Source: an uncultured delta proteobacterium (GTDB lineage Bacteria > Myxococcota_A > Polyangia > Polyangiales > Polyangiaceae). From it: DNA of 64,000 nucleotides. Made by a program: the position numbers and the translations under genes. Shown one piece after another: positions 14,460 to 31,662 of this stretch (position 1 is its first letter; each line of letters opens with the position of its first letter). The notes beneath the pieces were generated by a model. It was not told the DNA's origin, did not search any database, and saw only the letters and a list, made by a program, of their open reading frames with translations. Location of the stretch: assembly GCA_963850305.1 (NCBI GenBank), contig CAWKKR010000008.1, positions 1,600,001-1,664,000 on the forward strand. Direction: 5' to 3'.

Positions 14460-15160
14460 TCACGGCGTGGTGGTCGATCCACGCGCCCGACGGAGGTGAC
14501 CTCACGCCGTGTGAAGCGGGAATCACGGCCGACGGAGGTGTTCTCACGCTGTGTGAAGCGGGAATCACGGCCGACGGAGGTGTTCTCACGCTGTGTGAAG
14601 CGGGAATCACGGCCGACGGAGGCGTCCTCAACGGCGCGCGATCCACTTCTCACGGCCGACGGAGGTGACCTCACGCCGTGTGAAGCGGGAATCACGGCCG
14701 ACGGAGGTGTCCGCACGGCGCGTGAAGCGGGTATCGCGCTCGTGAGAACGCGTCCTCACGGCCGACGGAGGTGTCCTCGCGCCGTGTGAAGCGGGAATCA
14801 CGGCCGACGGAGGTGTCCGCACGGCGCGTGAAGCGGGTATCGCGGCCGTGAGAACGCGTCCTCACGGCCGACGGAGGCGTCCTCACGGCGCATGATCCAC
14901 TTATCACGGCCGACGGAGGTGTCGTCACGGCGCATGATCCACTCATCACGACCGACGGAGGTGTCCATCGCGACGCGTGATCCACTTATCACGGCGGACG
15001 GAGGTGTCGTCACGGCGCGTGATCCGCTTATCACGCCCGACGGAGGTGTCCTCACGGTGAGCGATCCACTTATCAGGACCGACGGAGGTGTCCTCACGGC
15101 GGACGGATATGTCCTCACGCTGCGTGATCCAGTTGTCGCGGCGGACGGACGCGTCCATCC
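14460..15160. repeat. Tandem array of about 33 units of 21 bp with 42-bp higher-order period
   Basis: Near-constant TCACGGCCGACGGAGGTGTCC mostly alternates with variable units such as TCACGCCGTGTGAAGCGGGAA and TCACGGCGCGTGATCCGCTTA. Confidence 0.9.
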
Positions 15161-15328: not shown

Positions 15329-16348
15329 ATGATCTTCCCCTGGGGCAAAGTGGGTCGTCGTTCACCAACCGAGTCCGTGGCGCGGATATACCGCGCGTTC
15401 CTGCGCCAGCGCACGTGGCCGCAGGCGGAGCTCGCGCGCGAGGTGGGCATCGGCGTTGCGGCGCTCCGGAAGCGGCTGGACGAGCTGACCACGCTCGGAA
15501 TGCCGCTCGAGCGGGAGGATGACCTACCGCAGGTCTACTGGAGCGTGCCCGCGACGTGGTTCCCCGACAGCGTCGCACTGGACAAGGACGAAGTCGCGGA
15601 TCTGCTACACGTGCTCTGGCACACGGCGCGGGGGCGGCGCCGCGACCGGCTCCTGCGCCTCGTGCTCGACGCTCGTCGTGATCGCGCGACCATCGCGGCG
15701 ACAGAATCCGCGATCGTGACGCACGAGGTATCGGAAGCGGAAGAGACGTTTCTCCCGATTTTGGAAGAGGCCATGACCGCGAACAGGCCCGTGCGCCTGC
15801 GATTCTACTCCACCGAGCGCGGCATCGTGGAGTCCAGGCACGCGTCGGTGCACCGCGTGGACGTCGGCCCCCCGACGCGACTCGTCGCGACGTGCCACCG
15901 GACGAACGAGCTCCGGTGGTTCCGCGTCGACAACATCGTCGATGTCAGCATCGACCGCGAAACGTCCTTCCGCGCCGCCAGCGACGAAGCTGTTCGTCGC
16001 TTCTGTGCGGACAGCATCGATGGGTTCAGGGGCGCTACCGAGACCGAGGAACACGCGTTCTTCGTGCGTAACCCCGAGGCGCGATGGGTCGCCAAGAATC
16101 TTCTCGCTCCGATGCGGGCAGTGGATGCCCCGGACGGAATTACGGTGTCCGTGACAACTGCCGGAGCGATGCGCGTCGCACGCTTCGTCGTCGGTCTTGG
16201 CGGCGCCGCTCGAGCGGAGAGCGCTCGACTCCGGACACTCGTCGAAGAGCTCGCACGGGGGGCGCTCCGCCGCTCGGCGCAACCTGGACGGCTCGCGAAG
16301 GCAGCCACGGGAATACCTGAACGACCGCGCAGACGCGCGAATAGATGA
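15329..16348 (+). CDS. WYL-domain transcriptional regulator (HTH-WYL-WCX)
   Basis: N-terminal HTH QAELAREVGIGVAALRKRLDEL; LVATCHRTNELRWFRVDNI WYL signature; may start at GTG 15350. Confidence 0.85.
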   Translation: MIFPWGKVGRRSPTESVARIYRAFLRQRTWPQAELAREVGIGVAALRKRLDELTTLGMPLEREDDLPQVYWSVPATWFPDSVALDKDEVADLLHVLWHTARGRRRDRLLRLVLDARRDRATIAATESAIVTHEVSEAEETFLPILEEAMTANRPVRLRFYSTERGIVESRHASVHRVDVGPPTRLVATCHRTNELRWFRVDNIVDVSIDRETSFRAASDEAVRRFCADSIDGFRGATETEEHAFFVRNPEARWVAKNLLAPMRAVDAPDGITVSVTTAGAMRVARFVVGLGGAARAESARLRTLVEELARGALRRSAQPGRLAKAATGIPERPRRRANR

Positions 16349-16424: not shown

Positions 16425-17006
16425 CTACCGCGGAGGCACCGGCGTGGCCCACAGCGCGCCAACATCGAACTCTATGGCCTCGAACGGCACGGCGCGCACT
16501 GGTTCGTCTCCGCGAAACGTTTCGAGCAGGATCCAGCGGTGGTTCTCCAGTGCATACGTCTCGATGATCCGGACCGCGGGATCCACGATCCACGCGAAGC
16601 TCACGCCGGCCCGCGCATAGAGAGGCATCTTGTCGGCGCGATCGAACGCTGCGCTGGACGGCGACACGATCTCGCATATCCAGTCAGGTGGGAGATCGAA
16701 CCAAGCCGTTCGCGGCAGCTCGGGCATGCGCTCCACTCGCCATCCCGCCCAGTCCGGAACGAGGACATCGCCTCCCGGCAGGTGAAGCTCTGGCTCGAGC
16801 AGAATCCACCATCCGCCGGGTCCCCCGCGGCCGCGCTGGAACGGCGGCGACAGCTCTCCGCCGAGAGCCGACGCTGCGGCAGTGTGCAACGGCCCCGGCC
16901 GAGGGCTCGTGACAAGCTCGCCGGCTACGATCTCGGCGACGAGGTTCGACGGTACTGCCGCGAGATCCGCGTAGGTGGCGCGACGTGTGGCTCGGACGGA
17001 CGACAC
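16425..17006 (-). CDS. Uma2-family (DUF820) putative endonuclease
   Basis: ATYADL..AEIVAGEL..PRP, GGWWILLEPE, VPDWAGWR, PDWICEIVSPS, KMPLYA. Confidence 0.9.
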   Translation of the reverse strand: MSSVRATRRATYADLAAVPSNLVAEIVAGELVTSPRPGPLHTAAASALGGELSPPFQRGRGGPGGWWILLEPELHLPGGDVLVPDWAGWRVERMPELPRTAWFDLPPDWICEIVSPSSAAFDRADKMPLYARAGVSFAWIVDPAVRIIETYALENHRWILLETFRGDEPVRAVPFEAIEFDVGALWATPVPPR

Positions 17007-17135
17007 GAAGACAGGGTAGCAGCTCAAGGGAGGCGAGCCGGACCAGAGGGAGAAACGACGCGACGCTCCCACGGGGCGTCGGCGTGGTGGGGGTTGACGG
17101 TCCAGTCCCTCGTTGCTAGCTTCCGCTCCCATAGA

Positions 17136-17176
17136 TTGCAGACCCCTTAGACCCCGGAGAGTCTTACGACTCAAAA
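17136..17176 (+). promoter_or_regulatory. Putative promoter (TTGCAG-N17-GAGTCT) containing the mini-array target and its TTT PAM
   Basis: -35-like TTGCAG at 17136-17141; reverse complement of 17152-17176 is TTT-TGAGTCGTAAGACTCTCCGGGG; the promoter assignment is inference. Confidence 0.5.
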
Positions 17177-17329
17177 CATCGGAAGCTGAAGGTTCACGTA
17201 GTCACTTCAGCTGGCGTGGATGCGATGCTGCTTCTGGAGTGGCGCCAGCTGAGCCTGCCAAGGCTCGCCACAGCAATCGTGAGGCGGATTGGGTTCGAGC
17301 GCCGCTAAAACTGTTGGTGCCCGCGGCGC

Positions 17330-17436
17330 TGCGGGGCGCTGCTCATCGCTCGGCCCGATTGAAGTTGAGTCGTGAGACTCGCCGGGGGCAACGTTCGGCG
17401 CTCTCCACCGCGTTCGCGCGGTGGCCTCGTTGAAGT
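17330..17436 (+). ncRNA. CRISPR mini-array (degenerate repeat, 35-nt spacer, near-consensus repeat); candidate CreA/CreR-like regulatory RNA
   Basis: 17401-17436 matches the repeat 34/36; 17330-17365 ends GGCCCGATTGAAGT versus consensus GGCCCCGTTGAAGC; spacer matches 17152-17173. Confidence 0.8.
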
Positions 17437-17538
17437 GGCTCCGAATTCCGAGCAATGGGCAGCGCCGCGCTGCGCTGCCGACGCTCCGCCTGATCGTTTT
17501 GACCTTCCGCGACCGTCCTCCCTTGGCAGAGGTGACAC

Positions 17539-20166
17539 GTGAGCATTGAATTCGCAGCGGCCTTTCACGCCCCCCTCACCGGCAACCCGAGCTTCCCGTG
17601 GCAGAGGGCGCTCTTCAGAGCGGTTCATCCGGGGCAATCGGGAGCATCGATTTCCCGAGGCATGCGACATCCCGACGGGACTCGGCAAGACGTCCGTCAT
17701 CGCAGTCTGGCTCCTCGCGCTGGCGCATCACGCCGTGAGCGAAAGTGCGCGCAGTTTCCCGCGCCGCCTCGTGTACGTCGTGAATCGACGTACCGTCATG
17801 GATCAATCGACGCGCGAGGCGGAACGTCTTCGCGAGAAGCTTTCAACGGCTGGCGAGCTGCGTGACGTAGCTCGACGCTGGCGTCACTCTGCTCTTACGA
17901 CCCGTCGGGCTCCCCTCTCGCAATCAGCACGCTGCGGGGTGAGTTCGCTGACAACGCCGAATGGCGCGACGATCCGGCCCGCCCCGCGGTCATCGTTGGT
18001 ACCGTCGACATGATCGGAAGCCGGTTGCTGTTCGCGGCTAGGGCCGGCTTCAAGTCCGTCCCCTTCATGCTGGTTTCCTCGGGCAGGACGTATTGCTGGT
18101 ACACGACGAGGCGCATCTCGAGCCGGCGTTTCAGGCGCTCATCGAGGAAGTTAGGCGAGAACAGAGTCATTTCCCGTGGGAGCGGGACCGTTTCGCTGTG
18201 ACGGCGTTGTCCGCGACGGCTCGCACCGGCACGAGCTCCTTTTCACTCACGGCCTCGGATCTCGAGAACGATGTCGTACGGAAGAGATTTTACGCGAAGA
18301 AGGGGCTCCGCATGCACCCTCTCGCGGAAGGCAAGAAGCTCCCCGATGCGCTCGCCGAGCTCGCGAGAAACCCCGACTTCGACGGGCAGGCCGTCGTCGT
18401 CTTCATGCGGCGGGTGAAGGACGTCGAAGCCGTCCGTGCGGCGCTGGATGGATCACCATCGTCCACGGCAGTCCTCACGGGAACGTTGCGCGGGTTCGAG
18501 CGCGACCAATTGGCACAGACCAATGGCGTGTTCGCTCGGTTCATGCCACCGCACGACCGAGATCCGAGGTGCACACCGCAGTCTGGCACGGTCTTTCTGA
18601 TCTCGACGTCCGCTGGTGAGGTGGGAGTCAACCTTTCTGCGGATCATCTCGTCTGTGACCTCGCTCCGTTCGACAGCATGGTTCAGCGCTTTGGGCGGGT
18701 GAATCGTTTCGGCCACGGAAAGGCCAGCATCGACATCGTCGTCGACGAGAGCGCGGCCAGGGGAGACGACATGTTCGCCTCCTCCATCCAGAAAACGCGG
18801 GCGCTTCTCGCGCGCCTTCCGAGAGTCGGCACGTTCCGAGCGGCTCGATGCGAGCCCCGCAGCTCTGGGTGAGCTCCCGTACCTCGAACGATTGGCGGCA
18901 TTCTCGCCTCAACCCGAGATCCCTCGCGCGAGCGATGTCCTGTTCGACGCCTGGGCGCTGACCTCCATCCGCGACCTTCCCGGCAGACCTCCCGTTGCTG
19001 ATTATCTTCACGGAGAGGAAGAGTGGGAGCCTCCAGAGACGTACATCGCTTGGCGGCGAGAGGTCGAGTACGTCACGGGAGACCTTCTTGATGAGCACCC
19101 CCCGGACGAACTCCTGGAAGACTATCCGCTCAAGGCACATGAGCTTTTGCATGACCGGACCGAGCGTGTCATCGAGCAGCTTGCCAAGATCGCCAACCGC
19201 TTCCCTGACCAAACGGTCTGGGTGCTCGAAGAGAACGGCAGCGTCCATCAAAAGGCACTGACTGTCTGGTTGAGCGGCGACAAGAAAACGGCCATCGACC
19301 GGCTAGCGCGCCGAACGGTGGTGTTACCGCCCCGCGTCGGAGGCTTAAAGGAAGGTCTGCTGAACGGCGCGAGCGCCTTCGACGAGCAGCAGCAGTACGA
19401 TGTCGCGGACGAGTGGGGGGACGAATCCGGCAAGCGTCGAGTTCGGCGAAACGATCCGGCTCCGCAAAGCGGTATGCGATTGGTTCGGAGCATCGTACCC
19501 CTGGGGGACCCTGATGAGTCGGATGCGGAGGGCCGCGCGCCAGTGCTCGAGAGCTGGTACTGGTTCGTGAAGCCGCGCTTCGCCGATGACGACGGTTCGC
19601 GGACGGCGCGCGCGTCGGAGTCGCTCGAGGCGCATCTGGGAAAGGCTGGAAGATCTGCTGCTGCGATTGCCGCCCGACTGTTGAATCCTGATGAATCGAC
19701 TGCAGTGCGGCTCGCCGCCGAATGGCACGATCTCGGCAAGAACCGGAACCTTTGGCAGCGCTCGATCGGGAACCTTGGAACGGAGGTCTTCGCGAAGTCT
19801 GGGCCGGAGATGACTCCGCGAAACATCACGCGCTACCGGCACGAATTCGGCTCTTTGATCGATATTCGGTTCAGAAAAGAGTTCGTTGCCCTGCCTCGCG
19901 AACAACAAGACCTGATCCTTCACCTCGTCGCGGCGCATCACGGACGCGCCCGCCCACACTTCCCACTGGAAGAATCGTTCGATCCGGAGCACACGGACAG
20001 TGTGGCGCTGGAGACCGCTCGATCGGTCCCTCGGAGGTTCGCCACGCTGCAGGCGCGATACGGTCGCTGGGGTCTGGCCTACCTGGAGTCGCTCGTCAGG
20101 GCAGCCGATGCGCTCGCGTCTCAGGACATCGGCGGGTCGGACGCGGGCAGAGTGAAGGGCCAATGA
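17539..20166 (+). CDS. cas3: Type I-G Cas3 helicase with C-terminal HD nuclease; at least 4 frameshifts in this sequence
   Basis: FPWQ, DIPTGLGKT, PRRLVYVVNRR, VGTVDMIGSRLLF, DEAH, QRFGRVNRFG, HDLGK, RHE, HHG, YGRWGLAYLE spread over different frames. Confidence 0.93.
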
Positions 20167-21047
20167 CCACCACCGGCCGATCCGAAGCATCGGTCCGCTG
20201 CGATCCGACCAATCCGGGCCAGTTTCTCGCTTGCTGCGGAATCCTGGAGCTTGCTCATCGCCGATTCGGCAGCGGAGCTACAGGCTGGTTCTCGACCGAC
20301 GGGCGGCGATTCTGCCTCGACGTGGGAGCGTCGAGCGATGCGCCGACACTACGGACGCTCCTGACAGAGCTGTGTTCCTGTGAGGTGACGAACACGATGA
20401 GCCCCGACGCGCTTCGCCGAAGGGCCGAGTTCGATGCGATGAACGGGCGCGAGAATCGAGGGCGCGGGAAGGGAAGACGAGAAGAAGGAGCTCGAATCAC
20501 TCTGGCGTGAATCACCTGTCATCTTCGGGGCACCATTCCACTTCACGGTCGACTGGCACCAGGACGACCGCGGTCGCGGTTCGACCTTCAAGACGTGGGC
20601 GGGGCAGCGGTCGATCATCGACATCGCCCGGGGTATGCACACCGCGGCGCGTGCCGCCCTCTCGGACATTGACACGATCGAGCAAATCCTCGGGGCAACG
20701 TCACGTGGCTCCGGGCTGCCGTTCAATTTCGACTCCGACCTGGGCGGTCAAGCGGCCCCGTTGGACGTGGGATTCAGCTTCGATCCTCTACCGACTATGT
20801 CCTTGGCCGCGCGTCCGGTGACCGAGCTCTGCGCGTTCATCGGGTTGCAACGCTTTCGCCCGGAGCGCGTCCGGAGGGAAATCGCTACCAGTATGCCCTG
20901 TGGTGGACCCCACTTCCCGCGGGCGTCGCCAGCGCGATGGCCTCGTGCTCTATCGATTCTCTGGAGCGCTCGCTCTTCGAGTTCCGGCTCTTGTACCGGA
21001 CCAAGTACCTGAAGAGTTTCTTGTCAGCAAAACCCGTCATGAGGTGA
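20163..21047 (+). CDS. csb3: Type I-G large subunit Cas8g (Csb3/GSU0052-like); at least 2 frameshifts
   Basis: DPTNPGQFLACCGILELA, KTWAGQ, LCAFIGLQRFRP, RTKYLKSF; lies between cas3 and cas7; ATGA overlap with cas3. Confidence 0.8.
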
Positions 21048-21050
21048 CCA

Positions 21051-22118
21051 GTGGCTACGAAATTGAATAGTTACGACACATTCCTGAGCGACGGAGGGCC
21101 AGCGGCACTCGTCATTCGCGAACACCTGATGAGCGTGGAAGGCGCGGACGGCGTCCTGTTTCCGGCGACGTTCGCGGCCAGCGAAGACAAGACTTTCAAG
21201 GGCGGCTACAACATCGACAATCTCGGGAATGGGAAGAACGTCTGCCTGGTCGATAGCGTCGGCTCGCAGGCGAATCGGTTGGAGCCCATCTTCTCCACCG
21301 ACCCATACAAGAAGCTCGTTCCGCAAGTGGTCGTCAAAGCGGGGCCGAGGGGTGTCAACCTGCTAGACGCAGGACACCGCGCCGCGGATGCGGTGATTCG
21401 ATGCTCGACCCTTCAGGAGGAACTGCAAGCTGCCTTCAGGGCGGCGATGCGCGGGGACGCCGCGCCGCTCGCCAAGATCGCACCGACGTCGCTCGTGTTC
21501 GGGGTGTGGGATTCTCGAGACACTCAAGCCAAGCTGCCCCGCCTGATCGCCTCGACGATACGAGCGTTCAATGTTCAGCGTCTTACTCGCTCGGCACAAT
21601 ACGTGCCGGCAACTGAGTACATAGCCGACGAGTTGCTGGAGGACACCGACGACAAGAAGATGAAGGACGCCTACTCTGCGAAGGGATTCGTGCACGTCCC
21701 GGCGTCTGCCACGCCGGGAGGCGTCGTGGCGGAGGCCGTCCGTCGGGATGCGTCGCTGCACCTTGCTGCGTTGCGGCTGCTCGGTGCAGGGAAGGATCCG
21801 GAAAAGTCGCTCGCGCTCAAGCGATACGTTTTTGGTCTCGCCTTGACCGCGTTCACGTTTTCGCCGGCGGGGTATCTCCGTCAGGGGTGCAATCTCGTAG
21901 CAGATCCTGAAAAAAAGCGTGACTTCAGGGTCGTCTTCAACGACGGACGGAGGGAACCAAGCGGCATCACCCACGATGATGCGATCTCCTATGCGGTGCT
22001 CGTTGCAGAGGCTTTCGGCGTCGGTGAGGATCGAGAGGTAGCTTTCGAGGTGCAACGCGCGAAAGCTGACCTCAGCGGAGAAAAAGTAAAGAAGCCAAAG
22101 AGCAAGGGAAAGCCGTGA
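21051..22118 (+). CDS. csb1: Type I-G Cas7 (Csb1)
   Basis: LFPATFA, VDSVGSQANRLE, HRAADA, PTSLVFGVWDS, YLRQGCNL. Confidence 0.93.
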   Translation: MATKLNSYDTFLSDGGPAALVIREHLMSVEGADGVLFPATFAASEDKTFKGGYNIDNLGNGKNVCLVDSVGSQANRLEPIFSTDPYKKLVPQVVVKAGPRGVNLLDAGHRAADAVIRCSTLQEELQAAFRAAMRGDAAPLAKIAPTSLVFGVWDSRDTQAKLPRLIASTIRAFNVQRLTRSAQYVPATEYIADELLEDTDDKKMKDAYSAKGFVHVPASATPGGVVAEAVRRDASLHLAALRLLGAGKDPEKSLALKRYVFGLALTAFTFSPAGYLRQGCNLVADPEKKRDFRVVFNDGRREPSGITHDDAISYAVLVAEAFGVGEDREVAFEVQRAKADLSGEKVKKPKSKGKP

Positions 22119-23727
22119 CATCGGGTGCCCAGCTTTGCGTGACGGTGCGCTTTCTGCAGCCCACGTTTCACGGGCGCGCGGAGGGGGGGCGAGGCGAATG
22201 GCCGCCATCCCCCCTTCGCCTGTTCCAAGCACTCGTGGCCGCAGCGGCGCGCTTGCAGCCGACTGGCTTCGACAATCGAACCCGGGAAGCGTTTCGGTGG
22301 CTGGAGCGGTGCGCGGCCCCGACGATCGTCGCGCCCGTCGCACAGGAGACGACTGGGATGAGGCTCTCGGTGCCGAACAATGCGATGGACATCGTCGCGC
22401 GCGCGTGGTGTCGAGGAAACGATTCGGAGACGGGTGACGCGGACCCTCGGACGCATCGGACCATGAAGACCGTGCGTCCGTACTGGCTTCACGGCGCGCG
22501 GGTCCGCTACATCTGGTCGTCGAACGAGGTGTCGCTAACCGCGGACGTAGCCGATCGCGTGGTTCGTGTTGCTCGCCATCTGACGCATCTTGGCTGGGGC
22601 ATGGATCAGGTGGTGGGTGATGCCTCGGTCATGAGCGCCGTCGAGCCTCCGGCAGCCGATGAGGACGAATGGCGCCCGTCGAGCGACATCTCTAACAGTG
22701 GTCTCCGGACTCCCGTTAGAGGCACCTTGGACGACCTCGAGGAGCATCACCACGCCTTCATGAATCGAATTGCGCCCGCCGGCTTTTCGGCGCCACCTCC
22801 CATCTCCGCATACAAGGTATTCGAGTATCGACGAGCATCCGATCCAAAGGCACGTCCGGTCGCGGTGTTTTCCATTCTCCGTCCCGGTGGCATGGCCTTT
22901 CGTGCGTTCGATCCTGCACGGAAGGCGCTCACGGTAGCTGGAATGCTTCGCCACACCGCCGAGGAGGCAGCCATTGCTTCCGGGTGGCCCGCTGCCAAGG
23001 TAGCTGGCTTCGTTATGGGGCACAGTGAACGCGGAGTGTCGACGCCAGTCGGTATCGAGCGTTTCGCGTATCTACCCCTGCCCAGCATCGAGTCCCGCGG
23101 TGGCGGCAAACAAACCGTCGGAAGCATCCGCCGCGTTGCCATCACTTCGTTCGCTGAAGACGTGAGTGCTGAGGTGGCGTGGGCGCGTCGCGGAATCTCC
23201 GGACGAGACCTCTTCGACGAGGACACGGGCGAGGCGGTTGCGTCCCTCGTGCTTCTCCAGAACGCCGACGCGGCGACGCAGCGTTACTTCGTCCCGGCGA
23301 GCACCTGGACTAGTGTCACTCCCGTTGTCCTTCCCGGATACGACGATCCGGATCACCTCCGCCAGAAGGCAAGCCGGAGCACGACGCCTGATCAACGGAA
23401 ACGATACCTGGAACGCCTGTCGGGCAGGATTGATCACCTCATCCGAAAGGCGCTTCGTCAATTTGGACTATCCGAGCTCTTGGCACAGCATGCCGACCTC
23501 GAATGGCGGAAGGTCGGGTTCCTCGCCGGGGTCGGGCACGCGGATCGATACGGAGTCCCCGATCATCTGCGCAGGTTTTTAGGTACCACGTGCGACTCCG
23601 GTTTCATGATTCCATGGGCAAGCCGATCTCGGTGCCGGGTCCGTTGTGTGTTGGCGGCGGTCGATACGCCGGAGTCGGCCTTTTCGTGGGAGACGATGGC
23701 CTGACGTCACCGTCGACGAGCGCATGA
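22115..23727 (+). CDS. csb2: Type I-G Cas5/Cas6 fusion (Csb2); frameshift near 23580
   Basis: EWPPSPLRLFQALVA, HLGWG, YLPLPSI, WTSVTPVVLPG; G-rich loop GPLCVGGGRYAGVGLF in the shifted frame ending 23727. Confidence 0.9.
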
Positions 23728-23845: not shown

Positions 23846-24056
23846 CTACGCGGCACGCAGCGCCTCGCGCATCACGCGATCGCGAATCGAGCCCTTCAGC
23901 GCGTCCGCCGTCAGCAGGTCCACGTGTTTGCCGAGCCACTGCTCGAGCTGGTCGCGAAGGCGACTCAGGGCGAACATCCCGACGGACGTCTCGAACTCGA
24001 CGAGCAGATCGACGTCGCTGTTCGGACCCGCTTCGTCACGCGCCACCGAACGATAC
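23846..24056 (-). pseudogene. 5'-truncated minimal nucleotidyltransferase (MNT antitoxin) without HEPN partner
   Basis: SVARDEAGPNSDVDLLVEFE..VDLLT..RDRVMREA; the usual FG before SVAR is absent. Confidence 0.7.
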
Positions 24057-24164
24057 CGCGGACGGTTACTCGAGTCAGGTGGAGGACATCGCATGACAAC
24101 AAACAGCGCCGAACTCGGGCTTTCCGAGGAGCCGGCGGTCCCCGAGGCCCGCGCGAAACCCCTA

Positions 24165-24192
24165 CTCTCCACCGCGTTCGCGCGGTGGCCCC
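24165..24192 (+). CRISPR. Orphan CRISPR repeat lacking its last 8 nt
   Basis: CTCTCCACCGCGTTCGCGCGGTGGCCCC is identical to repeat positions 1-28. Confidence 0.85.
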
Positions 24193-24283
24193 ATGACCCT
24201 GAAAAAGTCAGGTCAGGGGTGGCCCCATGACCCTGCAAAATTCGCCCGGCTCATGGACCCATGAGAGCAAACCGGCAGCCGTC

Positions 24284-24856
24284 TCACCCCCAAATCCGCC
24301 CCAACCTCAGCTCTATCGCGTCGAACGGCTCCGCTCTCACGACGTCCTCCTCGCCATGAAGCCCGACCACCGACCAGCGTCCGCTTTCGAGGCGGAGCAC
24401 TTCCAGCGTTTTGGCGAGTGGATCGATCAGCCAGGCGTGTGGCACTCCAACCTGAGCGTAGAGGGGGAGCTTCTTGATGCGATCGAAGCGCGCGGTCGAC
24501 GGCGACAGGATTCCGCAAACCCAATTCGGGCAGATCTCGATGAACGGGCCGTTGGGGGCGATTGGCATCCGCTCGCGGCGCCACCCGGCGAGGTCGGGCA
24601 CGACGATGTTGCCGTCGAGGTGGACCTCCGGTTCGTCGAGGATCCACCATCCGCCGGGTCCACCATCGCCGAACTGGAACGGCGGCAGGAGGCTTCCGCC
24701 GACCGCCGAGCCCGCGACGGAGTGGCGCCCGGCTGGGCGTGGGCTCGCGTGCAGCTCGCCGCCGACGATCTCCCCGATGACGTCGTCGCCGAGCGCGACG
24801 AGATCGTCGTACGTGGCGTTGCGTCGAGCGGGTTCCACCGCGCGGAAGGATATCAC
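24284..24856 (-). CDS. Uma2-family putative endonuclease
   Basis: ATYDDL, GGWWILDEPE, VPDLAGWRR, KLPLYA; CGILSPS where paralogues have CE(I/V)LS. Confidence 0.9.
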   Translation of the reverse strand: MISFRAVEPARRNATYDDLVALGDDVIGEIVGGELHASPRPAGRHSVAGSAVGGSLLPPFQFGDGGPGGWWILDEPEVHLDGNIVVPDLAGWRRERMPIAPNGPFIEICPNWVCGILSPSTARFDRIKKLPLYAQVGVPHAWLIDPLAKTLEVLRLESGRWSVVGLHGEEDVVRAEPFDAIELRLGRIWG

Positions 24857-27355: not shown

Positions 27356-28438
27356 CTCTCCACCGCGTTCGCGCGGTGGCCCCGTTGAAGCCGCAGCGAT
27401 ACTTGCGGTATGCAGTTCTCGCGATCCGTCGCTCTCCACCGCGTTCGCGCGGTGGCCCCGTTGAAGCGACCGCTGCGTCGGTGCCGATCGATCGGCGATC
27501 CATTCGCTCTCCACCGCGTTCGCGCGGTGGCCCCGTTGAAGCTCGCATCGCAGCCGTCGTCGACTTCGAGGATCGATGCTGCGCGCTCTCCACCGCGTTC
27601 GCGCGGTGGCCCCGTTGAAGCCTGCGCCGACGACACGTCTTGCAGCGTGCGTCGACATCCTCTCCACCGCGTTCGCGCGGTGGCCCCGTTGAAGCCGAGT
27701 CCGAGCGCGACGCTGGCTCGGCAGAGATGTCGACTCTCCACCGCGTTCGCGCGGTGGCCCCGTTGAAGCCTACGTGCCGCCGCCGATCCATTCCGCGATG
27801 TCCGACGAAGCTACTCTCCACCGCGTTCGCGCGGTGGCCCCGTTGAAGCCGACGCTTGTCATGCAGCGTCGGCTCCGCGGCCTCCGGCCGCCTCTCCACC
27901 GCGTTCGCGCGGTGGCCCCGTTGAAGCCACACTGAGCCAGCAGTTGGTCCGCGTCTGCGCGAGCGCTCTCCACCGCGTTCGCGCGGTGGCCCCGTTGAAG
28001 CTCAGAGGCACGCGAGCTCGATCGTGGCCTGAGCATGCAGCTCTCCACCGCGTTCGCGCGGTGGCCCCGTTGAAGCGTCGGCGACGTGCGCGAGATGCGT
28101 GCGCCATCACGGCTCTCCACCGCGTTCGCGCGGTGGCCCCGTTGAAGCCCGCCAGCCGATGTCCGCAGCGATCGACGGCGCCTGACTCTCCACCGCGTTC
28201 GCGCGGTGGCCCCGTTGAAGCGTGTAGCTCGCGTGCGCGAGCAGCCGCTCGCGAGGATCTCGCCTCTCCACCGCGTTCGCGCGGTGGCCCCGTTGAAGCC
28301 CGGACGCTCTGCGCCGCGTCGGCGGTCGCTGACGTACTCTCCACCGCGTTCGCGCGGTGGCCCCGTTGAAGCTCCACATGCCGGTCTGGGCGACGTGCTC
28401 GTCACATCTGCCTCTCCACCGCGTTCGCGCGGTGGCCC
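27356..28438 (+). CRISPR. CRISPR array: 14 full repeats CTCTCCACCGCGTTCGCGCGGTGGCCCCGTTGAAGC, one truncated trailer repeat, 14 spacers of 36-44 nt
   Basis: Repeats start at 27356, 27432, 27507, 27586, 27660, 27734, 27814, 27892, 27966, 28041, 28113, 28186, 28264, 28337 and 28412 (27 nt only). Confidence 0.99.
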
Positions 28439-31092: not shown

Positions 31093-31662
31093 TCACGTCG
31101 CCACGTCGGCCCAGAGAGTCGACAGATCGATTTCGATCGCGTCGAACGGAACGGCGCGAACCCTGGCATCGTCCCGGAAAGCGACGACGCGCGCCCACCC
31201 GTCCGGGCCGAGCCGCAAGACTTCGAGGAGCTTCTGATCGGGGTTCACCAGCCACACGAACGAGACCGCCTCGCGCGCGTAGACGCCGAGCTTGTCGGTC
31301 CGATCGCTCTTCTCCGTCGACGCCGACAGCACCTCGCAGACCCAATCTGGCGCGAGCGTGAGATACGGTTCGCGTGGAACCTCCGCCAGCCGGCTCCGGC
31401 GCCAGCCGCCGAGGTCGGGTACGAGAATGTCGGCTCCCAGATGCAGCTCTGGTCCGTCCAGGATGATCCATCCACCCGGACCGCCGCGGCCGCGCTTGAA
31501 GGGAGGCCCGAGCTCTTCTCCGAGTGCGCTTGCGGCGGCGGCATGCGCCAGCGCCGGACGGGGGCTGAGGCGCAGCTCGCCGTTCACGATCTCCGCGACA
31601 AGGTGGCGAGGCGTCGCAAGGACGTCAGCGTAGGTCGCGATGTGTCGAGCTGGCCGGGACAC
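31093..31662 (-). CDS. Uma2-family putative endonuclease
   Basis: ATYADVL, GGWIILDGPE, VPDLGGWRR, PDWVCEVLS. Confidence 0.9.
   Translation of the reverse strand: MSRPARHIATYADVLATPRHLVAEIVNGELRLSPRPALAHAAAASALGEELGPPFKRGRGGPGGWIILDGPELHLGADILVPDLGGWRRSRLAEVPREPYLTLAPDWVCEVLSASTEKSDRTDKLGVYAREAVSFVWLVNPDQKLLEVLRLGPDGWARVVAFRDDARVRAVPFDAIEIDLSTLWADVAT

Follow-up and report, generated by a model that had tools for sequence, protein, structure and literature searches.

In the 64,000-nucleotide stretch of DNA analysed here (the window), the segment directly 5' of a type I-G cas operon would be the coding body of a small gene, the first cistron of that operon, whose expression would be controlled by the operon's own Cascade. 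We consider it very likely, from the sequence features described below, that the arrangement is a repression circuit of the CreA/CreR type, and probable, from amino-acid conservation between two species, that the frame encodes a genuine protein in this lineage. In the model that we favour, a single transcript would start near position 17131 and carry the small ORF, a CRISPR mini-array and then cas3g, cas8g, cas7g and csb2, and Csb2 would excise a crRNA-like guide from it. Loaded with this guide, Cascade would recognise a partly matching site beside a TTN PAM at +22 to +46 of its own transcription unit, and would stop transcription without cutting, as the CreA/CreR precedent suggests. Because Cascade and its guide would block transcription, the product, a small basic protein predicted to be beta-beta-alpha, would be made mainly once Cascade is lost or inhibited. 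Judging by its position, it may be a CreP-like growth-arrest toxin, which would make the cell dependent on Cascade or abort infection by anti-CRISPR phages. By analogy, this is the most likely single role, tentatively held, and should the gene be real the chances of a toxic product appear evenly balanced.

Layout of the locus

The source genome (6.26 Mb, 11 contigs, ~ 66% GC) carries cas3g, cas8g, cas7g, csb2, cas4/1 and cas2 at this locus, as identified with NCBIfam and Pfam, and the CRISPR array of the locus is found at 27356-28437. The closest named relatives of cas3g are labelled Polyangiaceae and Polyangiales, and comparison of the whole window with Rfam returned no matches. A preliminary description of this DNA had likened the segment to creTA modules, with a promoter region targeted by Cascade. 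Reading of the sequence bears out the order promoter, target, ORF, degenerate repeat, spacer, repeat and cas3 (Table 1), and the creTA-like layout is supported as well, the promoter being a predicted one.

Table 1. Features of the segment and its surroundings (positions in the window)
Feature	Position	Strand	Basis or remark
Predicted sigma70-type promoter, TTGACG (17094-17099), 17 nt, TAGCTT (17117-17122)	17094..17122	+	sequence; function inferred
Predicted transcription start and leaderless start position	17131..17134	+	window ATAG where G004 has ATG
Open frame of the small protein (P0001), 57 codons and TAA	17135..17308	+	contains the earlier 27-codon ORF; alternative start GTG 17216
Target of the mini-array spacer: protospacer 17173 to 17152, TTT PAM 17176 to 17174	17152..17176	-	within the 5' part of the small ORF
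Four hairpins of the preliminary description, probably incidental	17184..17330	+	inverted repeats; 17/32 pairs kept in G004
Arm 1 of the long-range stem, where the hairpin of the upstream repeat would be	17325..17353	+	26/26 pairs in both genomes
Degenerate upstream repeat, 3' end: 4 nt and 8-nt 5' handle ATTGAAGT (17358-17365)	17354..17365	+	10/12 bases same in G004
Spacer of the regulatory crRNA-like guide, 35 nt	17366..17400	+	sequence
Downstream repeat, near-identical to the array repeat	17401..17436	+	sequence
Arm 2 of the long-range stem, within the cas3g leader	17448..17476	+	pairing with arm 1
cas3g, cas8g, cas7g and csb2 (type I-G)	17539..23704	+	NCBIfam, Pfam; cas3g, cas8g and csb2 with frame breaks

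Guide and target

The mini-array consists of two repeat-like units around one spacer, the upstream unit having retained the 8-nt 5' handle. Twenty of the first 22 bases of the spacer match the target, which has a TTT PAM alongside, and a scan of the whole genome returned this target as the only site that has a TTN PAM, matches the 5-nt seed exactly and agrees at 14 or more of 22 bases. TTN is the PAM reported for type I-G in the portions of the literature available. Hence, the spacer is partly complementary to a site beside the predicted cas promoter, with the PAM of the subtype, as is characteristic of CreR and CreA. In G004, a genome of the same genus, the -35 hexamer, the handle and the repeat are the same as in the window, the target has a TTC PAM and mismatches at positions 6, 15, 16, 21 and 24 within the first 28, and spacer and target have changed together between the two genomes.

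Base-pairing of the guide is expected ~ 22-43 nt past the predicted transcription start, on the non-template strand, and Luo et al. (PMC4288209) report that type I-E Cascade represses from this strand within transcribed DNA. Furthermore, no terminator was found on the plus strand ahead of cas3g, and the ORF sits on the predicted cas transcript.

A long-range stem encloses the mini-array

Of the structures seen, the one conserved best is a stem of 26 pairs at the edge of the segment, which encloses the handle, the spacer and the repeat. G004 retains every one of the 26 pairs, one of them through a compensatory change, which, given two sequences, is conservation and not covariation. Compared with shuffled sequences, the duplex scores z = -4.7 and z = -6.6 in the two genomes, and its pair probability is high in the local fold and lower in the full G004 leader. 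The last of the hairpins noted earlier overlaps arm 1.

Moreover, the end of arm 1 precedes the 8-nt handle by exactly 4 nt, and Csb2 cleaves 4 nt 3' of the hairpin base according to the part of the published description at hand (PMC9638904). Because the two distances match, the long-range helix may substitute for the lost hairpin of the upstream repeat, and would in this way form a permuted repeat for Csb2. Processing by RNase III is an alternative explanation for the stem.

Hairpins within the segment

The four perfect inverted repeats listed in the preliminary description are present at 17184-17212 (8 bp), 17207-17252 (10 bp), 17251-17266 (6 bp) and 17298-17330 (8 bp), and the first two stems are indeed mutually exclusive, since they overlap. 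The segment, chosen post hoc, holds six inverted repeats of at least 6 bp against a mean of 1.7, and that number is reached in 1 of 300 shuffled sequences and in 12 of 300 genome windows taken at random. Its folding energy is unremarkable (z = -0.14; 83 of 200 shuffles fold equally well), and the equivalent segment of G004 gives z = -0.02 with two inverted repeats of at least 6 bp. When G-U pairs are allowed, 4/8, 5/10, 3/6 and 5/8 pairs of the respective stems are kept in G004, which amounts to 17 of 32, two of them with changes on both sides. The earlier suggestion of a structured RNA toxin or a structured leader is thus not supported, with hairpins that lack conservation and a folding energy no better than chance; on this comparison the hairpins are probably incidental.

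The conserved Shine-Dalgarno site, start and rare-codon mini-ORF of the CreT type were not seen when the two-genome alignment was inspected by eye, and the z values above indicate no stable conserved hairpin such as CreT RNAs have. In the predicted fold of the window, part of the ORF region (17192-17266) pairs with 17521-17545, which holds the cas3g ribosome site and start codon; this pairing is probably incidental because the G004 fold does not contain it.

Coding signal and predicted protein

The frame upstream of the 27-codon ORF stays open to 17135. Its equivalent in G004 is a 65-aa ORF, intact from ATG to stop, with 45% identity to the window frame 17135-17308 and a stop codon at nearly the same place. 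Over the core codons (17186-17296), a permutation test on a frame-blind DNA alignment gave 19 identical residues of 37 against 12.6 expected (P = 0.0015) and a BLOSUM score with P = 0.00015 at a nucleotide identity of 59%, while frames +1 and +2 gave P = 0.70 and 0.99 in the same test. The three indels that separate the window from G004 in the core (3, 6 and 3 nt) are all in frame. The dN/dS ratio is ~ 0.33-0.62, varying with method and region, and GC by codon position resembles that of the cas genes. The score has P = 0.08 in a neutral simulation of the whole ORF, and the third-position excess has P = 0.04 in the core and 0.23 overall. For the part upstream of ATG 17225 alone, constraint has P = 0.08-0.25 and is only suggestive. 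The codon-usage score is highest in this frame, though it reaches -0.13 and 0.02 in the two genomes versus 0.23-0.43 for the cas genes; rare codons are scattered in the window ORF, and none under 4% occur in G004. As just two independent loci are available, the window and G004, every one of these statistics rests on one pair.

A protein-coding ORF under a targeted promoter, as in CreTA, is therefore indicated by frame-specific constraint in one sequence pair, with an uncertain start in the window. The idea of a repressed peptide gains real support in this respect, since the comparison with a second species reveals constraint on the frame at the protein level.

AlphaFold predicts a beta-beta-alpha arrangement for both proteins with modest confidence (mean pLDDT 67 and 59), and the peptide is basic with an amphipathic C-terminal helix. 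Membrane peptides of type I toxin-antitoxin systems have a hydrophobic helix of transmembrane length. No hydrophobic segment of that length is present here (top 19-residue hydropathy 0.9-1.1, GRAVY near 0), and assignment to these peptides was rejected on hydropathy.

Start of the gene

The ORF at 17225-17308 translates as had been stated, and its ATG lies inside the loop of the second stem. The 27-codon boundary that was drawn from this ATG is probably wrong, since the position is CTG in G004. Another in-frame codon, GTG at 17216, has an ATG at the equivalent G004 position. Hence, a leaderless product of 58-65 aa, or one of 30-33 aa from GTG 17216, is more likely than one of 27 aa.

The predicted promoter has 8 of 12 matches, which is below the threshold of the promoter scanner, hence its absence from the scanner's list, and the G004 equivalent of the -10 hexamer is weaker (CAGTGT). 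The ATG of G004 sits 8 nt after the -10 position, at the leaderless peak of the genome, and the ATAG found at the leaderless position in the window is one base out of frame. Reads of the one DNA run aligned to the window leave 17131-17288 uncovered. The GTG 17216 option has no well-placed Shine-Dalgarno site. Taken on sequence, we lean slightly towards a leaderless start at the transcription start; an internal start at GTG 17216 is rather unlikely, and one at ATG 17225 improbable. On the genome-wide scale, a clear leaderless-gene signal was observed in the window's genome, where TAnnnT lies 6, 7, 8 or 9 nt ahead of ATG at 35, 28, 42 and 44 of 2189 crude starts respectively, compared to 1, 3, 1 and 3 of 1945 internal controls at the same spacing.

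Relatives of the leader and of the small protein

Among 60 relatives, G004 is the only one to carry the leader, and at least one of 300 family genomes has a DNA match to it beyond the repeat, most of the weaker matches entering only as tallies. A search of metagenomes for the leader pattern gave two loci; the sequence of L065 is the same as that of G004, and L064 was rejected as a leader homologue, being a chance match. Both L065 and L066 have the G004 sequence and were left out of the count of independent loci. In 117 cas3g upstream regions (80, 6 of 8, 30 and the window), the cassette was found only in the window, in G004 (L032) and in the duplicate L066; nine of these regions have less than 500 nt upstream, and an operon may begin with a gene other than cas3. 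Two unpublished genomes, G155 and G499, are counted only within the tallies of cas3g upstream regions and of family leader matches. With the duplicate set aside, the small protein is present at 2 of 116 cas3g upstream regions, and it is therefore no general I-G subunit. At L067, which has the nearest other cas3g (64%), a WYL-like gene runs to cas3 without the cassette, and in five other genomes of the genus no match to the cas3g N-terminus or to the WYL protein was found.

A six-frame profile search with the small protein gave strong matches in 2 of 7 genomes of the genus and 2 of 331 of the family. Three further weak matches in the family (E 0.001-0.008 per genome) lie inside longer frames and were rejected, their number being about that expected by chance. 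Of 77 stretches with the small-protein pattern in genome contigs and 123 in viral contigs, none was confirmed. No homologue was found among proteins of near lengths in a set of 5.8 billion, in the ESM Atlas at 0.9 or above, or by tblastn of phages and plasmids, and no family in Pfam, NCBIfam or PHROGs (Pfam and PHROGs searched up to E = 10). HMMER over 1.84 billion representatives gave one hit, an unrelated tandem-repeat protein. Fold searches returned no match at E ≤ 0.001 or Z ≥ 5, which does not make the fold new; several ubiquitin-like chains rank high (the N-terminal half being compared with the beta-grasp), all with Z of 3.5 or less.

State of the cas operon

In comparison with the intact G004 genes, cas3g, cas8g and csb2 of the window contain nine non-triplet indels, which were merged into seven events in 6.0 kb. 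The genome background amounts to no more than 27 events over 122 kb and 114 genes (Poisson P = 0.0004), so that the excess over 17540-23690 is at least ~ 5-fold. The WYL-domain gene, cas7g and cas4/1 have no non-triplet indels relative to G004. The frame breaks correspond either to a locally ill-polished assembly or to a real recent decay of the interference module. In the accounts available, I-G Cascade binds DNA stably only with Cas3; a real decay would therefore put an end to repression, and the toxin would be silenced by the ATAG or the peptide would be harmless. With real breaks and translation from GTG 17216, an unrepressed intact peptide would be tolerated, which argues against a toxin.

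Alternative explanations

A growth-arrest toxin has to be weighed against a small protein that is genuine but not toxic and shares the regulation of the cas genes (an accessory or modulator of Cascade, or cargo), the guide being a plain CreR autorepressor. We hold this to be a serious possibility though short of probable: all the coding evidence fits it equally well, the ORF and cas3g would share a transcript with no detected plus-strand terminator between them, and many CreR elements have no toxin in the accessible text of Liu et al. (bioRxiv 10.1101/2023.03.10.532045). Its occurrence at 2 of 116 loci speaks against a general subunit, however, and the characterised genes between a CreA target and a mini-array are toxins in the accounts at hand. 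A further alternative is that the segment codes for no protein, being a leader or what is left of an older, decaying gene; the autorepression of cas (CreR) would then be all that functions. The absence of a canonical start at the 5' end of the window frame, the weak codon usage, a dN/dS of up to 0.6, the lack of a homologue beyond G004 in the collections searched and the cassette-free L067 would all fit this reading, but the frame-specific conservation of amino acids (P = 0.0015), the three of three in-frame core indels and the intact G004 frame speak against it, and we regard it as rather doubtful.

A structured RNA, either a CreT-like RNA toxin or a two-state switch of the overlapping hairpins, would account for inverted repeats that outnumber those of most shuffles and for a hairpin near the first-stem position in both genomes, in a different register, and known CreT RNAs are described, in the available sources, as poorly conserved in sequence. 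Yet folding is at z ~ 0 in both genomes, the 17 of 32 pairs kept include the two changed on both sides, and no Shine-Dalgarno site, start, run of consecutive rare or proline codons or stop module is conserved by eye; this explanation is very improbable. The toxin reading can also be extended into an I-G toxin-antitoxin module, in which a new family of tiny leaderless protein toxins would be combined with a permuted-repeat guide that matures only after the polymerase has passed the whole mini-array. The window would then represent an exit from addiction, the toxin start having been broken first and the decay of cas3g, cas8g and csb2 having followed; we consider this extension unlikely.

Comparison with known systems

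Characterised CRISPR-repressed toxins are, in the literature available, RNAs in types I-B and I-F and one phage-derived protein, CreP, a CreA-repressed toxin of the I-F system of Acinetobacter baylyi ADP1 (Shu et al., bioRxiv 10.1101/2024.01.05.574328). As with CreP and CreA in the accessible text, a protein gene within a cas locus would here be targeted by a guide from a two-repeat mini-array, through a partial match with the cognate PAM. CreP is described there as a 103-aa phage KilAC domain protein with a Shine-Dalgarno site, targeted beside the -35 and shown to block division, whereas the present product belongs to a type I-G locus, would have ~ 58-65 aa and probably a leaderless start, matches no family and has the target inside its ORF. 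Membership of the KilAC CreP family was rejected, the ORF being of 57-65 aa without a Pfam or PHROG match up to E = 10, versus ~ 100 aa for KilAC.

The degenerate upstream repeat with its 8-nt handle, the near-intact downstream repeat and the spacer partly matching near the cas promoter are shared with CreR (Liu et al.) and with regulatory mini-arrays (Shmakov et al., 10.1101/2023.03.03.530964), as far as the accessible texts describe them, and CreR elements are predicted for I-U (= I-G) in Figure S7 of Liu et al. Unlike the elements described in those texts, the present one has a constrained ORF between target and guide, and the 26-pair stem encloses the guide. The order of targeted promoter, repressed element, degenerate repeat, spacer, repeat and cas gene is also that of CreT in Haloarcula and Halobacterium (PMC8501985) and in Pseudomonas aeruginosa (bioRxiv 10.64898/2026.06.02.729485), according to the available parts of these reports. 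There, CreT has a strong Shine-Dalgarno site, an ORF of 4-6 codons in which rare or proline codons follow one another, and a hairpin that it needs, whereas none of these features is conserved here and amino acids are conserved instead; assignment to the CreT RNA toxins was rejected for want of both the Shine-Dalgarno/rare-codon module and a conserved hairpin. The locus would act like CreAP or CreR and belongs neither to the KilAC CreP family nor to the CreT RNAs.

The circuit is already known. What appears new is that in type I-G it would control a miniature protein of no recognised family, together with the stem around the mini-array. Neither an I-G CreTA protein toxin nor a long-range stem enclosing a mini-array was found in the part of the literature covered, and bioRxiv supplements may list I-G cases. 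CRISPR-repressed toxins explain the persistence of CRISPR and the response to anti-CRISPR phages, and an I-G case with an unrelated miniature protein, if true, would widen this class. The enclosing stem suggests how a repeat without a hairpin of its own could be processed by a Cas6-type nuclease. If the ORF is harmless, the locus would be one more CreR autoregulator.

Other observations at this and a further locus

At a further locus, L075, a handle-like motif was observed at 2140-2400 inside an apparent small gene upstream of cas3g, which we take to be Bro-N-like. The motif is followed by a stretch that matches a site ~ 200 nt upstream (TTC PAM, 14/20, first 9 exact), and a repeat hairpin was not seen there.

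Upstream of the cas operon in the window, a WYL-domain gene (15329-16348) is likely a second regulator of the locus; it is syntenic in G004 and apparently also in L067. Three related stretches of the Uma2 family flank the CRISPR locus, at 16425-16990 (minus strand), at 24284-24856 (minus strand) and near 31438-31604. One of them separates the WYL gene from the cas leader in the window, and in G004 the WYL gene adjoins the leader directly. A solitary repeat without the 3' handle (24165-24192), followed by a short duplicated motif, lies between a nucleotidyltransferase gene (23846-24238, minus strand) and a Uma2-family gene. Finally, a degenerate tandem array with units of ~ 21/42 nt occupies 14464-15155, upstream of the WYL gene.
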